Origin: Halarcobacter sp.
GTDB taxonomy: Bacteria; Campylobacterota; Campylobacteria; Campylobacterales; Arcobacteraceae
NCBI GenBank assembly: GCA_963676565.1
Contig: OY781089.1
Coordinates: 1,056,001 to 1,120,000 of the forward strand
Length of the DNA: 64,000 bases
Reading direction: 5' to 3'
Position 1 is the stretch's first letter; every line of letters starts with the position of its first letter. Below are positions 49,187-53,957 of the stretch, in pieces. The notes beneath the pieces are model-generated. The model searched no databases and was not told where the DNA came from. It saw only the letters and a list, made by a program, of their open reading frames with translations. The position numbers were made by a program, and so were the translations under genes.

Positions 49187-50392
49187 TTATATTTGTTTAA
49201 ATCTATAACCATTTTGTTTCAATTTTTCACGTATTAATTTTTGGTGTTCCTCACCTTTTGTTTCTAAGGCAATTGTAATTTGAGCCTCCCCAAATTCAAG
49301 TTTTATAGAGTCTCTATCATAATCTATTTGAACAATATTTGCTGAACATTCTTTAAAAATTTCGGTTAATCTAGTTAATGATCCTGGTTTATCAATTAAT
49401 TTGATAATCAAGTTCATTTTTCTATTTGATTTAACTAATCCTTTCTCAATAATTTGAGCAAGCATAGTTACATCAATATTTCCACCACTTACTATTGCAC
49501 AAACTTTTGAGTCTTCAAGTTCAATCTTCTCATGCATTATTGCAGCTGTTGCAACTGCACCAGCACCTTCTACAACAAGTTTATGCTTCTCAAGTAAAAA
49601 TAAAATAGCATTTGCAATCTCATTGTCACTTACTTCAACAATATCATCAACATAATCAATAATTATATCTAGAAGTTTTGGTGTTACATCCCTTACAGCA
49701 ATCCCATCAGCAATAGTTCTAACTGAAGTTGAATCAATTGGCATTTGTGAACGATAAGATTCTTTCATAGCCGCAGCTCCACTTGCAACTACACCAATAA
49801 TTTTTATATCTGGGTTTATTGATTTTGCAGCTATTGCAATACCTGAGATTAAACCACCTCCACCAATTGGAACAATAATTTGTTTTAAATCTTTTATCTC
49901 TTCTAAAACTTCTAAGGCAATTGTCCCTTGTCCTGCTATAACATCATCATCAGCAAAAGGGTGAATAAATTCACAATCATTTTCTTCAGCAAATTTATAT
50001 GCAGCTTCTTTAGCTTCATCAAAATTTTCACCTACTAAAACAACATTTGCACCATAAGATTTTACACCACTAACTTTTGTTAAAGGGGTTGCCTCTGGCA
50101 TAAAAATAGTTGCTTCAATATCAAAATATTTTGCAGCAAATGCTAAACCTTGAGCATGGTTTCCTGCACTTGCGGCAACTACACCCTTTTTCTTTTTATC
50201 TTCATTTAGTTTTGCAATTCTATTAAAAGCACCTCTTAATTTAAAACTTCCTGTTAGTTGAAGGTTGTCTTTTTTTAAATAGATTTCACTTCTAAAGGTT
50301 TCACTTAGAATTGGAGCTTTTGTAATTGGGGTATTATTAGCTACATTTTCTAAATTTTTCTTTGCTTCTTTTACATCATTTAAAGTAATCAT
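49187..50392 (-). CDS. ilvA: Threonine ammonia-lyase with ACT domain (start 50392 or 50407)
   Basis: GSFKLRGA, SAGNHAQG, GGGGL and SGGN motifs. Confidence 0.95.
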   Translation of the reverse strand: MITLNDVKEAKKNLENVANNTPITKAPILSETFRSEIYLKKDNLQLTGSFKLRGAFNRIAKLNEDKKKKGVVAASAGNHAQGLAFAAKYFDIEATIFMPEATPLTKVSGVKSYGANVVLVGENFDEAKEAAYKFAEENDCEFIHPFADDDVIAGQGTIALEVLEEIKDLKQIIVPIGGGGLISGIAIAAKSINPDIKIIGVVASGAAAMKESYRSQMPIDSTSVRTIADGIAVRDVTPKLLDIIIDYVDDIVEVSDNEIANAILFLLEKHKLVVEGAGAVATAAIMHEKIELEDSKVCAIVSGGNIDVTMLAQIIEKGLVKSNRKMNLIIKLIDKPGSLTRLTEIFKECSANIVQIDYDRDSIKLEFGEAQITIALETKGEEHQKLIREKLKQNGYRFKQI

Positions 50393-50425
50393 ATTTTTTC
50401 TTTTCATCTAAATTGTTTGGAATAA

Positions 50426-50507: not shown

Positions 50508-52787
50508 CTATCCATTTTCCTTTCTAATTTGATTTACTGCCTCAACCATGTTTATTAAACTTTGTTTAGTCTCTGGCCACTTTCTTGTTTTTAGTCCACA
50601 ATCTGGATTAATCCATAATTGCTCTTTTGGTAAAACTTCTAATAAAAGTTTTATTTGAGTTTTCATCTCCTCTACACTCGGAACTCTTGGTGAGTGAATA
50701 TCATAAACTCCAGGTCCAACTTCTTGTTTATATCCTACTTCTTTAAATATTTTAAGAAGTTCATTTCCACTTCTAGCAGTTTCTATTGATATAACATCTG
50801 CATCCATATCTTCAATAGTTTTTATAATATCATTGAATTGGCTATAACACATATGTGTATGAATTTGCGTTTTTTCATAGGCTGTACTAACTGATATTTT
50901 AAAATCTCTAACGGCCCATGATTCATAATCTTTTATTTTATTAGCCCTTAGAGGGTAACCCTCTTTAAAAGCAGCTTCATCAACTTGAATAATCTTGATT
51001 CCTTTTTTTTGTAGGTCATCAATCTCATCACTTAAGGCAACTGCAATTTGTTTTGATACATCACTTCTTTGGATATCATCTCTAACAAATGACCAGTTTA
51101 AAATAGTAACTGGTCCTGTTAGCATCCCTTTCATGATTTTAGAAGTTTGTTTTTGTGCATAAGTAATCCAATCAACTGTCATAGGTTTTGGTCTACTTAC
51201 ATCTCCATATATAAATGGTGGTTTTACACATCTACTACCATAAGATTGCACCCACCCATTTTGGGAAAATGCAAAACCATTTAATTGTTCACCAAAATAT
51301 TCAACCATGTCATTTCTTTCTGGTTCACCATGAACTAAAACTTCAAGGCCACACTCTTCTTGAAAAGCAATACAATAATCTATATATGTTTTCATATCTT
51401 TTTCATACTGTTCTTTTGATATGCAACCTTTTTTAAAGTCCCGTCTTGAATTTCTAATCTCAGGAGTTTGAGGGAAAGAACCAATTGTTGTTGTTGCTAA
51501 ATCTTCATATTTTAAAAGTTCTTTTTGAACTTTTATTCTTTCTTCAAACGTCCCTTGTCTTGAAGTGTTTTTAAACTCTTTAGTTCTTTTTTGTACATTT
51601 TTATCATTTATTCTTAATGAACTTCTTCTATTATGATTTGCATTGATATTCTTATCATAATATTTTAAATCTCCATTTTGTAAGCTTTCAATCCCTGTTG
51701 AAAAAATCTTTGATATTAATCTTAATTCTTGGAGCTTTTCACAAGCATAACTCAACCAAGATTTAATCTCTTCATCAAGTTTTTCTTCATATTTTAGTGT
51801 AAAAGGTGTATGTAGAAGGGAACAAGAAGTTGAGATGATAATGTTTTCTTTTTTTATTTTTTTATTAAACTCTCCCAATAAAAGAAGAGTTTTTTGAATA
51901 TCATTAACCCAAATATTTCTTCCATCTACAACCCCAGCAATTAGTTTTTTATCACTATTTGCAATTGCATCTAGAGATTTAAAGTTTTCCTTCCCATATA
52001 AAAAGTCTAAACCTAGAGCCCAAATAGGAGTATTTACCAAAATATTTGTAGCTTCATTTGAGTGCTCAAAATATGTTGTAACAATGATTTTAATATTTTG
52101 TGCAATATTTGCTAAGCAGTCGTATGTAGGTTTTATTAAACTTAATAGTTTTGAATCATTATCTTTTACAAAAATAGGTTCATCTATTTGTACAAAAATC
52201 TCATCATCTAATTTTGATATCTGCTCAATTAATTCTTTGTATATTGCTATAACTTTTGGATATAACTCAAAAACATCACCATTATCAATTCTTTTTGAAA
52301 GTCCTAAAAATGTTAATGGACCAATGATATTTATCTTTGTTTTTATCCCTAATTCTTTTGCTTCTTTGTACTCTTCAATTATTTTTTTAGCATTTAATTT
52401 ATATTCATCCTCCAAGCTTAATTCAGGAACTATATAATGATAATTTGTATTAAACCATTTAGTCATCTCCATAGCTACACTTTCATCATTTCCCCTAGCC
52501 ATAGCAAAATAAAGCTCTTCATCTTTTAAATCTTGAAATCTTTTAGGAATAGCATTTAACATAATACAAGTATCTAAGATATTGTCATATAGTGAAAAAT
52601 CGTTTGAACTGATAAATTTAATTCCTGCTTCTTTTTGATAGTTCCAGTGTCTTTTTTTAAGTTCACTTGCAACTTTTTTTACTTCATCAAATGAACAATT
52701 TTTTGTCCAAAAACTTTCTAGTACTTTTTTAAGCTCTCTTTGTTCTCCAATTCTTGGAAAACCAACTACGTATGAATTTACAGACAT
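50508..52787 (-). CDS. metE: Cobalamin-independent methionine synthase
   Basis: GFPRIG, KWFNTNYHY, TTIGSFPQ, HTHMCY and NPDCGLKTR motifs. Confidence 0.98.
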   Translation of the reverse strand: MSVNSYVVGFPRIGEQRELKKVLESFWTKNCSFDEVKKVASELKKRHWNYQKEAGIKFISSNDFSLYDNILDTCIMLNAIPKRFQDLKDEELYFAMARGNDESVAMEMTKWFNTNYHYIVPELSLEDEYKLNAKKIIEEYKEAKELGIKTKINIIGPLTFLGLSKRIDNGDVFELYPKVIAIYKELIEQISKLDDEIFVQIDEPIFVKDNDSKLLSLIKPTYDCLANIAQNIKIIVTTYFEHSNEATNILVNTPIWALGLDFLYGKENFKSLDAIANSDKKLIAGVVDGRNIWVNDIQKTLLLLGEFNKKIKKENIIISTSCSLLHTPFTLKYEEKLDEEIKSWLSYACEKLQELRLISKIFSTGIESLQNGDLKYYDKNINANHNRRSSLRINDKNVQKRTKEFKNTSRQGTFEERIKVQKELLKYEDLATTTIGSFPQTPEIRNSRRDFKKGCISKEQYEKDMKTYIDYCIAFQEECGLEVLVHGEPERNDMVEYFGEQLNGFAFSQNGWVQSYGSRCVKPPFIYGDVSRPKPMTVDWITYAQKQTSKIMKGMLTGPVTILNWSFVRDDIQRSDVSKQIAVALSDEIDDLQKKGIKIIQVDEAAFKEGYPLRANKIKDYESWAVRDFKISVSTAYEKTQIHTHMCYSQFNDIIKTIEDMDADVISIETARSGNELLKIFKEVGYKQEVGPGVYDIHSPRVPSVEEMKTQIKLLLEVLPKEQLWINPDCGLKTRKWPETKQSLINMVEAVNQIRKENG

Positions 52788-52846
52788 TAATATCCTTTAA
52801 TATTTTATTTTGATTTGTTTTATGTGTTAAATATTAAAGTTAATGT
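52784..52846 (-). promoter_or_regulatory. 18-bp hairpin pairing the leader-ORF stop region with the metE SD and AUG
   Basis: mRNA 5' ACAUUAA-CUUUAAUAUUU pairs with AAAUAUUAAAG-(GAUA bulge)-UUAAUGU. Confidence 0.7.
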
Positions 52847-53169
52847 GGTGGGTGTACTCCTGTTCGTCTAAATGCGAAACAAGTAGTATAATATGGACAT
52901 CTAGGGATAAATTTGAAAAGTAAGACTGTTAGTTTTGTTTTTAATTTAAACAGACAATCACAATGACAAGGTTTATTTGTAAGAATAGATGTAGTACAAA
53001 GAAGAAGCTCTGGTGGATCTTCATCTAATTCATCTATCTCTTTAGATAGTCTATATTGTAAAGTCTTTTTCGCAATAGTAACTTGAGATTCTAGTTTTAC
53101 TTGTACACTATGAGCTAAAATACTAACAAATGTAAAATATTTTTTTCCAAAACCTTTTGGTGACTTCAC
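52840..53169 (-). CDS. metE leader ORF (109 aa, putative regulatory uORF)
   Basis: Extended -10 TGCTATAAT (53211-53203) and SD aaagga 5 nt before GTG; ends RRTGVHPPH 52 nt before the metE ATG. Confidence 0.7.
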   Translation of the reverse strand: MKSPKGFGKKYFTFVSILAHSVQVKLESQVTIAKKTLQYRLSKEIDELDEDPPELLLCTTSILTNKPCHCDCLFKLKTKLTVLLFKFIPRCPYYTTCFAFRRTGVHPPH

Positions 53170-53267
53170 AACAATCCTTTCATAAAATTTTTAAGAGGTG
53201 CAATTATAGCAGAAAAATCTAAACTTAATTTAAAGTTAGATAAAATCGCAAAAACGTAAGGATAATT

Positions 53268-53957
53268 TTGAAATTTACATTTGTAACACTTTTTTCAAAT
53301 CTGATTGAACCATATTTTTATGACTCAATTTTAAAAAGAGCTGTTGAAGCAAATTTTATAAGTTATGAATTTTATAATCCACGGGATTTTACTAAAAATA
53401 AACACCTAAAAGTAGATGCTCAAATGGTAGGTGGAGGTGCTGGAATGCTTATGACACCCCAGCCACTTTTTGATTGTTTAGATGAGGTTAAAAAGAAAAA
53501 CCCTGATGCTTATATTATATTTCCTCTAGCTGCAGCAAAACCTTTTCGGCAAAATGATGCCAAAAGACTTGCAAAAAAACAGAATATTGTTTTTGTTAGT
53601 GGAAGATATGAAGGAATTGATGAAAGAGTTATTGAAAAATATGCCAATGAGGTTTTCTCAATTGGTGAGTTTATCTTAACAGGTGGTGAATTACCATCTT
53701 TAGTTATGGCAGATGCAATTTCTAGAAATGTTGAAGGTGTTCTTGGAAATGCTGATTCTTTGACTATGGAAAGTTATGAAAACAATCTTTTAGAAGCGCC
53801 TTCTTTTACAAAACCTGAAAAATTTGAAAATTTAAGTGTAATTAAAGAATTCTTAAAGGGAAATCATAGTAAAATTGCCGACCTAAAAAATAATCTGGCT
53901 ATTTGCAAAACAAAATATTTTAGACCAGGTTTAGTTACGAACAAAAAAACAAAATAG
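53268..53957 (+). CDS. trmD: tRNA (guanine37-N1) methyltransferase
   Basis: [15 protein letters not shown] and [11 protein letters not shown] motifs. Confidence 0.97.

Follow-up and report, generated by a model that had tools for sequence, protein, structure and literature searches.

The window analysed here is a 64,000-nucleotide (nt) stretch of DNA from Halarcobacter sp. (contig OY781089.1, positions 1,056,001 to 1,120,000), and our subject is the region upstream of its metE gene. All coordinates refer to the window, and features lie on the minus strand unless stated otherwise. The metE gene (50508..52787) encodes a cobalamin-independent methionine synthase of 759 amino acids (aa) that matches Pfam Meth_synt_1 (397 bits) and Meth_synt_2 (484 bits). 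Its ATG start codon (52787..52785) follows a Shine-Dalgarno (SD) sequence read as AAAGGA at 52798..52793. A gap of 480 nt separates metE from the divergent trmD, which begins at 53268 on the plus strand. Inside this gap lies an open reading frame (ORF) of 109 codons (52840..53169) with a GTG start, a TAA stop at 52842..52840 and an AAAGGA SD (53175..53180) located 5 nt ahead of the start. A candidate promoter with the extended -10 sequence TGnTATAAT was read from the sequence at 53203..53211, about 35 nt upstream of the ORF and back to back with trmD. The consensus scan missed this site because it demands a -35 hexamer. From the comparisons described below, the gap very likely holds a regulatory leader gene acting in cis on metE, and not an untranslated leader.

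The leader ORF is conserved as a protein. The DNA of the gap was matched in 24/24 same-genus genomes, with about 70% identity across the genus, and an open frame with the same protein sequence was found upstream of metE in 26 of 28 relatives' loci. Among 22 same-genus loci, pairwise differences at the first, second and third codon positions numbered 7459, 6179 and 10970, respectively. Synonymous variation was seen within the conserved blocks, where Arg, Gly and Ala each appeared as four codons and invariant residues were spelled with three to four codons. These substitution patterns indicate that the leader ORF is under purifying selection at the protein level. Most relatives with an assignable start also have an SD-like GGA ahead of the start codon.

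Leader relatives are widespread in the order Campylobacterales, where 233 of 401 genomes had a match and 55 of 96 genera were represented. The leader matched 286 protein clusters; none of the 120 listed had a Pfam domain, and their source names were all "hypothetical" or "uncharacterized". The window ORF itself matched no Pfam family at E<=0.1, and nothing meaningful was found for the leader and 107 family members at E<=10. A relative is encoded in 311 reference-genome stretches, and the best 80 of these were used for locus titles and synteny counts. The titles of these 80 loci named Halarcobacter (closest, 94%), Arcobacter, Aliarcobacter, Poseidonibacter, Sulfurimonas, Sulfurovum, Sulfurospirillum and Sulfuricurvum, or broader labels; two titles outside those genera look mis-binned. 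In 77 of the 80 loci, metE lies downstream of the leader, 47-325 nt past a pair of Pro codons near the leader's 3' end, and the remaining three were not assessable. A paralogue search of the window's own genome found one leader copy only.

It had been remarked in an earlier prediction, made from the letters of this region alone (the original prediction), that no S-adenosylmethionine (SAM) or cobalamin riboswitch is visible at metE. Database searches bore this out. A scan of 52500-53500 with all Rfam families gave no match at E<=1 and five implausible matches at E<=10 (snoRNA, thermometer and sRNA models) far below the gathering scores; two of the matches under E 10 were on the metE strand near the leader. 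The models RF00174, RF01482 and RF01689 had no match anywhere in the window's genome, and RF00174 matched 0 of 151 genomes of the order while matching the control genomes. One could still suppose an undescribed RNA sensor, that is, a new riboswitch class in or around the leader, with the ORF playing a secondary part as does the upstream ORF (uORF) of Mycobacterium tuberculosis metE. The DNA identity of the region across the genus would suit such a sensor, and the available part of PMC11260477 supplies the precedent of a riboswitch plus uORF at metE: there, a uORF between the promoter and metE takes part in control, although it is the riboswitch that senses vitamin B12 (B12) and the uORF that couples translation. 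However, the variation in our region is three-periodic and synonymous, like that of a protein, no Rfam family was matched, a 241-nt fold of the region was no better than shuffled sequences (z -0.72), and what the leader classes share is peptide motifs. An RNA sensor is, therefore, very improbable.

The alignment of 107 leader sequences contained 16 invariant columns: G6, F7, Y11, F12, C70, R90, C91, Y94, F98, A99, R101, R102, G104, H106, P107 and P108. In addition, P52 and P53 did not vary in alignment A1 and were conserved to 90% or more in A2, and K66, P67 and C68 were at least 90% conserved. The conserved positions fall into four blocks. The first is the N-terminal motif KGFGKxYF (K5-F12, KGFGKKYF in the window, 53134..53157) with a hydrophobic stretch after it, which is common to all leader classes. 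The second is an internal Asp-Pro-Pro (D51 P52 P53, 53011..53019), and the third is KPCHCxC (KPCHCDC in the window, K66-C72, 52954..52974). The last is the C-terminal block FKFIPRCPYY..FAFRRTGVHPP (F85-P108, 52846..52917), which has about the length of the ribosomal exit tunnel and is our proposed arrest sequence. It ends with the invariant Pro107-Pro108 (CCA CCA, 52846..52851), the proposed stall site, and only the His109 codon (52845..52843) separates these codons from the stop.

Conservation halts abruptly after P108. The tail beyond it consists of 1-36 unconserved residues in 77 loci, and of 0-53 when all leader classes are counted, so that the stop codon may fall anywhere between the position immediately behind Pro-Pro and one shortly ahead of, or overlapping with, the start codon of the next gene. 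About 25 strictly conserved residues ending in Pro-Pro and followed by noise have the look of known arrest peptides. The residue before Pro-Pro is H, S, A or D, with VHPP in the window and ISPP, LAPP, TSPP or LDPP in other leaders. The first Pro stands 38 residues after the first Cys of the CxCxC motif in GVHPP leaders, and 35 residues after it in ISPP and LAPP leaders. This spacing, conserved in the manner of a CruR-type leader, was 35-38 residues in 18 of 19 long leaders; locus L080 lacks the motif, and CHCxC is absent from five short leaders. Across the classes, a conserved motif lies 35-47 residues upstream of each Pro-Pro, which is approximately where the tunnel of a stalled ribosome ends. 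In the class alignment, the xPP at the end of the short leaders falls on the internal DPP of the long leaders. The internal Asp-Pro-Pro is nearly invariant in metE-type leaders, and a long leader may represent two pause modules in tandem.

Two types of attenuation by codon content were considered and rejected. A cysteine-codon attenuator acting on CHCDC does not fit because conservation of the flanking K, P, H and D is at the amino-acid level, and because 35-38 codons lie between the motif and the helix described below. A classical leader of the trp/his type does not fit because there is no Met codon after the start and a scan for intrinsic terminators in 52650-53350 found 0 sites.

The original prediction placed an 18-pair hairpin with a 4-nt bulge at the metE start, and RNAfold returned this structure as both the minimum free energy (MFE) fold and the centroid of 52770-52870. 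The 5' arm (52829..52846) contains the anti-SD and starts with the final base of the Pro108 codon. An outer stem of 7 base pairs (bp) joins 52846-52840 with 52790-52784 and holds the AUG, while an inner stem of 11 bp joins 52839-52829 with 52805-52795 and holds the AAAG of the metE SD. The 3' arm thus spans 52784..52805 with the bulge at 52794-52791, and the loop or spacer (52806..52828) has no G and more C than G. The 71-nt hairpin alone folded at -9.0 kcal/mol (z -2.98), and 2 of 200 shuffles were equally good. When the Pro-Pro codons plus 30 nt were paired as a duplex with positions -20..+6 of metE, the window gave -12.3 kcal/mol (z -5.0, 0/200 shuffles), topped 22 of 22 control windows within the leader, and beat 57 of 57 foreign ribosome-binding regions in a partner swap. 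The claim that both the SD and the AUG are locked in the hairpin was upheld in part: the inner stem is robust and was kept in the MFE fold and centroid of the 241-nt context, whereas the outer stem with the AUG was lost there and is not conserved.

A ribosome protects about 15 nt on the 3' side of the first P-site base. By this textbook footprint, a ribosome with Pro107 in the P site would reach about 52836, covering the outer arm in full and four bases at the start of the inner arm, and one standing at the leader stop codon would cover nearly the whole 5' arm. All or most of the anti-SD would thus be inside the footprint of a ribosome held at Pro-Pro or at the stop codon.

Next, the pairing was compared across relatives. 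Folds of the region from the Gly codon to metE+21 in 26 loci showed the metE SD paired 0-25 nt after the Pro-Pro codons regardless of spacer length, and in several relatives the Pro-Pro codons CCU CCU are themselves the anti-SD. Covariation was assessed with duplex and partner-swap tests because the position of the anti-SD arm shifts between species. The duplex test was the one described above, with 22 control windows within each leader. Among 61 unique loci, the median z was -1.95, with z below -1.64 in 37 and a native duplex better than all 22 controls in 31, although these loci are related to one another and the counts overstate independence. Among a further 76 loci, whose species may overlap with those of the first set, z was below -1.64 in 31 and the duplex beat all controls in 23, compared to about 3 by chance. 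The duplex in relatives mostly covers -4..+19 nt from the end of the Pro-Pro codons. In the partner swap, native pairs had a mean of -9.08 kcal/mol and swapped pairs -6.24 kcal/mol; 0 of 2000 permutations reached the native mean, and the native pair beat the median foreign partner in 53 of 61 loci. The RNA from Pro-Pro to about 20 nt downstream is thus complementary to the metE ribosome-binding region far more often than by chance, and the two arms co-vary. The predicted conservation of the pairing therefore holds for co-variation of the arms but not for the outer stem, nor for the 24 of 61 and 45 of 76 loci without significant pairing.

The spacer is also unusual in composition. In 33 short-spacer loci it contained 21 G in 1495 nt (1.4%) and 14.4% C, compared to 13.5% G and 10.6% C upstream of the window's other genes. 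A G-poor spacer of this kind probably keeps the region unstructured, and would also suit Rho. The stretch from Pro-Pro to the SD (52806-52839 in the window, and its equivalent in the 33 relatives) resembles a Rho-loading site in composition.

Leader relatives were also found ahead of genes other than metE. Nine second leader copies, from another family of the order, precede TonB-dependent receptors, keep the N-terminal motif and KPCHCNC, and end in ISPP. Two of these receptors were scanned; one had TonB-B12 as its best family (318 bits, under the equivalog cut-off) and the other scored weakly on heme and B12 receptor models. In five receptor operons, BtuF-, BtuD- and BtuC-like genes come after the receptor (four of these operons were judged by sequence resemblance and one with NCBIfam). 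One operon continues with BluB, a CobD-type decarboxylase and CbiB, and a different one with CobQ. The anti-SD arrangement described for metE was seen in about six of the nine receptor-type leaders by visual reading of the folds. The five short leaders (about 55-65 codons) are from the window's own family, keep the N-terminal motif, and end in TSPP or LDPP. The genes downstream of them are DUF4198 and CbiM in some loci, and a CbiM-like gene together with the cobalt chelatase CbiK in the others. All 14 non-metE copies with readable downstream DNA (14/14) head corrinoid or cobalt genes. The classical B12-riboswitch regulon consists of metE, btuB with btuFCD, bluB/cobD/cbiB/cobQ, cbiM and cbiK. 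Since the sister leaders head operons for B12 uptake, B12 salvage and cobalt, the signal is more likely to be B12 than methionine or SAM.

The distribution of the leader agrees with this assignment for the most part. The window's genome has metH, and leaders are present in ten families where most sampled genomes have both metE and metH (f1, f4, f6, f8, f10, f15, f17, f19, f23 and f24). In three families with metE and no metH match, leaders were found in 0/30 (f13), 0/6 (f25) and 0/3 (f20) genomes. We regard a corrinoid as a somewhat probable signal.

Another possible explanation is that the same attenuator responds to a different signal, such as cobalt or another metal bound by CHCxC, methionine, SAM or homocysteine, or the activity of the Sec translocon on the N-terminus. 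CHCxC looks like a metal site, its distance from Pro-Pro recalls the copper-binding CXXC of CruR, and cobalt-uptake genes are headed by two leader classes; yet the cobalt-type leaders are those without CHCxC. The gene controlled in the window is a methionine gene, but there is neither a run of Met codons nor the terminator of classical attenuation, the regulated set is the classical B12-riboswitch regulon, and the leader tracks the co-occurrence of metE and metH, which is sensible for B12. Homology of the N-terminal motif with the signal peptides of receptors brings secretion monitors to mind, but monitoring of Sec makes no physiological sense for metE. We consider a signal other than a corrinoid unlikely. 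Zinc was rejected as a signal because it leaves the bluB, cbiB, cobQ and cbiK operons unexplained.

The origin of the leader may be traced through its N-terminus. The leader profile matched the N-termini of BtuB-like TonB-dependent receptors (640-690 aa) in 5/5 genomes examined, with E values from 7.5e-10 to 9.6e-4. In those receptors the motif is the start of a typical signal peptide; the hydrophobic stretch of the window leader is only about 12 residues. The sequences suggest that the leaders arose as copies of receptor 5' ends to which an arrest tail was added, and export of the leaders is possible. The receptor n-region, KGF[GR]xKYF[ST]LAAI, is the same as that of the leaders and is unusually conserved in four other families of the order (L181, L183, L185, L186 and L187, in genomes G033, G064, G068, G047 and G040). 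Of those receptors, two are located 1.3-3 kb downstream of metH and another is 1.7 kb upstream of a metE leader. Such strong conservation is rare for a signal peptide and, thus, the n-region motif may have a function of its own.

These features could also belong to a small functional protein, for example an exported or membrane-associated B12 or cobalt factor, that is co-transcribed and translationally coupled with metE, the helix serving the coupling. Such a protein would account for the conservation of the N-terminal and middle motifs as well as the C-terminus, and for the signal-peptide-like start. Coupling would be in keeping with those relatives in which only 2-4 nt separate the leader stop from the downstream start codon, or the two overlap, and any translation through the 5' arm would open the helix. 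However, conservation halting at Pro-Pro, with the tail and stop free over 0-53 codons, is unexpected for termination-reinitiation, and the anti-SD hugs the Pro-Pro codons rather than the stop. AlphaFold2, run with 107 sequences, predicted one long N-terminal helix and no globular fold (pLDDT 66.6, pTM 0.30, C-terminus below 50), so no folded domain is predicted. The leader recurs at the head of operons before four unrelated gene types, and in the window's genome it is a single copy in cis to its target. A small functional protein is, therefore, an improbable explanation.

The mechanism that we favour is attenuation by an arrest peptide in the style of CruR and SecM: stalling of the ribosome at Pro-Pro would unmask metE, and a corrinoid would relieve the stall. 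On the sequence comparisons made here, we put its probability at roughly 50%. Stalling of the ribosome in the leader is by itself probable. In this mechanism, the last 25 or so residues of the nascent chain (the C-terminal block) would bring the ribosome to a halt with one Pro codon in the P site and the other in the A site. The arrested ribosome would sit on the anti-SD arm, leaving the metE SD open and metE translated. Once arrest was relieved, the ribosome would run off, the helix would re-form and metE would be shut off, and Rho may reinforce this shut-off on the G-poor spacer. The target of the corrinoid would be the emerged portion of the nascent chain, namely the signal-peptide-like N-terminus and the CHCxC located 35-38 residues from the stall site. 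As a result, metE would be repressed when the B12-dependent MetH can work, which is the job of the cobalamin riboswitch elsewhere. That arrest corresponds to the ON state follows from the geometry and from physiology, as B12 should repress metE, btuB and the cbi genes. The original prediction had proposed that a ribosome at the end of the leader frees the metE start. The geometry and the co-varying anti-SD of the relatives support this idea, but the conserved landmark is Pro-Pro and not the stop codon, which lies 0-53 codons further on.

Several results weigh against this mechanism. The hairpin is weak (-9 kcal/mol) and made almost entirely of A-U pairs, and its 101-nt fold (-10.1 kcal/mol, z -1.43, 17 of 200 shuffles equally good) is not significant. 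The outer, AUG-holding stem is gone from the 241-nt fold and is already disrupted in two relatives that are 95% identical (L002 and L003). Direct pairing is clear in only about 40-60% of loci, which are not independent of each other, and some long-spacer loci fold differently (e.g., L016-L019). The terminal motifs (VHPP, ISPP, LAPP and LDPP) differ from the RAPP-like tetrapeptides shown to stall ribosomes, and EF-P normally resolves pauses at ordinary xPP sites. The absence of CHCxC from the short leaders leaves the sensing element undefined, and no fold predicted by AlphaFold2 is able to hold B12. Family f11 has weak leader-like matches in 15 of 38 genomes with metH in 0 of 10, and one of its loci (L029) carries a leader-like ORF upstream of metE. 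Two adjacent BtuB-like receptors of the window's own genome (G000:C1:2284666-2288380), whose best family is TonB-B12 (246.5 and 93.9 bits), are preceded by an ORF of 61 codons with a strong SD (L091, G000:C1 ~2288400-2288650, minus strand). The N-terminus of this ORF is like the leader motif (KKNYFSF..I.A.V), and it has neither CHCxC nor Pro-Pro; possibly it is a decayed leader or one that works in another way. The region received 0 reads from three raw oligo-dT RNA runs, which is not informative. Lastly, a promoter-like site in the loop, TTAACA-17-TAAAAT at 52830..52802, matches 10 of 12 consensus positions, and transcription may start there.

The loop site, the z of the 101-nt fold and the A-U composition of the stem would also be accounted for if the hairpin were a by-product of AT-rich sequence, with metE driven by its own promoter in the spacer and the leader irrelevant to it. 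Promoter-like matches are, however, common in this region (7 found versus 3.7 +/- 2.0 in shuffles), and the one in the loop was not kept in the relatives inspected by eye. Strict synteny with metE in the listed loci, co-variation of the arms, and enrichment of pairing over shuffles and control windows in two locus sets all speak against a by-product. Weaker evidence on the same side comes from a metatranscriptome contig of a 92-95% identical relative, which spans the leader and metE and ends at 53162, 7 nt inside the leader start, although contigs cannot show a transcription start or a single transcript. A chance hairpin is, therefore, a highly unlikely explanation. The same contig has 177 letters where the window has a 76-nt stretch between the final leader codons and the initial metE codons (region 52846-52769), and matches the long-spacer variants with inserted hairpins (L014-L022).

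The attenuator proposed here resembles several known systems. The place of its anti-SD and the co-varying pairing agree with the secM/ermC geometry, in which a stalled leader ribosome drives an SD-sequestering attenuator. In SecM-secA, MifM-yidC2 and VemP-secDF2, a ribosome arrested near the 3' end of a uORF breaks up a helix in which the next gene's ribosome-binding site is hidden. The geometry of the first two was rightly recognised at metE in the original prediction, as the 5' arm in the leader would be covered by a held ribosome and the metE ribosome-binding site freed. Secretion monitors are also described, in the available parts of PMC10951299, PMC7897499 and PMC10987492, as having an N-terminal localisation signal and an arrest that ends at or next to Pro, and our leaders have a signal-peptide-like N-terminus that may be such a signal, and Pro-Pro at the proposed arrest site. 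In contrast, the targets here are a biosynthetic enzyme and a vitamin regulon instead of the Sec or YidC machinery, there is no sequence similarity, and the releasing force would need to depend on a small molecule. The leader was not found upstream of secA, secDF or yidC; it precedes metE in 77 of the 80 listed loci, and the other leader types precede B12 or cobalt genes.

A closer likeness is to CruR (DUF2946) of Bordetella pertussis. As far as the accessible text of its description goes (Roy et al. 2022, PMC9426467), CruR is encoded by a uORF upstream of a TonB-dependent transporter, has a Cys motif 45 residues before a C-terminal RAPP, and is relieved from arrest by copper. The shared features are a uORF of about 110-145 codons at the head of an operon, a predicted N-terminal export signal (a putative one here), a Cys motif at a fixed distance before xxPP (45 residues in CruR versus 35-38 here), a TonB-dependent transporter as the target (of the receptor-type leaders here), and the proposed logic, in which arrest is the ON state and release by the ligand turns the downstream gene off. 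However, there is no sequence kinship, since 0 of 107 leader members matched DUF2946 at E<=10. The Cys motif is CHCxC here and CXXC in CruR, the end is VHPP, ISPP, LAPP or LDPP instead of RAPP, and the short leaders have no Cys motif at all. Also, the targets are metE and B12 or cobalt genes instead of copper genes, and an SD-sequestering helix is evident here whereas CruR uses Rho-dependent termination.

The RAPP-like "RQH" arrest peptides are small uORFs in which strict conservation is confined to a C-terminal motif with Pro-Pro at its end, according to the sections of the two reports that were accessible (Fujiwara et al. 2024, PMC10987492; Fujiwara et al. 2025, PMC12992588). Toeprinting of CruR placed the two Pro codons in the P and A sites (PMC10987492; PMC12992588). 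Our leaders share the conserved C-terminal Pro-Pro end of a small uORF with this class. The RQH class is defined by the tetrapeptides R/Q/H-A/G-P-P, and RAPP-like arrest peptides more widely (RQH, ApdA, ApdP and SecM) by the types RAPP, RGPP, RAGP, RAPG, HAPP and QAPP; only Pro-Pro is held in common with the leaders here. The accessible text does not mention cobalamin in PMC12992588, nor metE or Campylobacter in PMC10987492. Our literature search covered titles and abstract openings, with most subscription journals and supplements outside its scope, and within it we found no metE or btuB leader peptide in Campylobacterota and no B12-responsive arrest peptide.

Cobalamin riboswitches (RF00174, RF01482 and RF01689) act on the same gene set (metE, btuB, cobalt transport and cob/cbi), from the same upstream place and often by hiding the SD. 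They differ in that their sensor is an RNA aptamer, whereas the conserved element here is a translated peptide and no such RNA was found. From these sequence-based comparisons, a widespread and undescribed leader-peptide family probably does the cobalamin riboswitch's work in Campylobacterales. A broader and tentative proposal, which we hold to be less likely than the attenuator at metE, is that leaders derived from the BtuB signal peptide replace the cobalamin riboswitch across the B12 regulon of the order, with the nascent chain sensing a corrinoid that releases Pro-Pro arrest. The switched genes would then be metE, btuB with btuFCD, corrinoid salvage, cobalt uptake and cbiK. Possibly the N-terminus is exported first, so that periplasmic B12 is reported.

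Control of metE, btuB and the cob/cbi genes by B12 is textbook riboswitch regulation, and ligand-responsive bacterial arrest peptides include TnaC, SpeFL and the Erm leaders. If the proposal holds, a small-molecule regulon can pass from an RNA sensor to a nascent-peptide sensor, and the short list of ligand-responsive bacterial arrest peptides, CruR among them, would gain a cofactor-sensing member. This would be the first peptide-based vitamin sensor doing a riboswitch's job, and it could provide a compact, genetically encoded B12-responsive part. Hundreds of "hypothetical proteins" in Arcobacter, Sulfurimonas, Sulfurovum and Sulfurospirillum would gain a testable role, and B12 cross-feeding in sulfidic and host-associated habitats would be easier to read from genomes.

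Two further ORFs were also noted. A Cys-rich ORF of about 140 codons, with a MSY.EWFEQH start, CPL and several CxxC, lies in or just after 5/5 leader-headed B12-uptake operons (L082-L086; e.g., L086:9759-10178, plus strand). It adjoins a YcaO-like gene in L082, L083 and L086, has no NCBIfam match, and is a candidate for corrinoid handling. In the window, a 406-codon ORF (49187-50407) lies directly downstream of metE and, by eye, resembles a pyridoxal phosphate (PLP)-dependent threonine dehydratase (ilvA-like).

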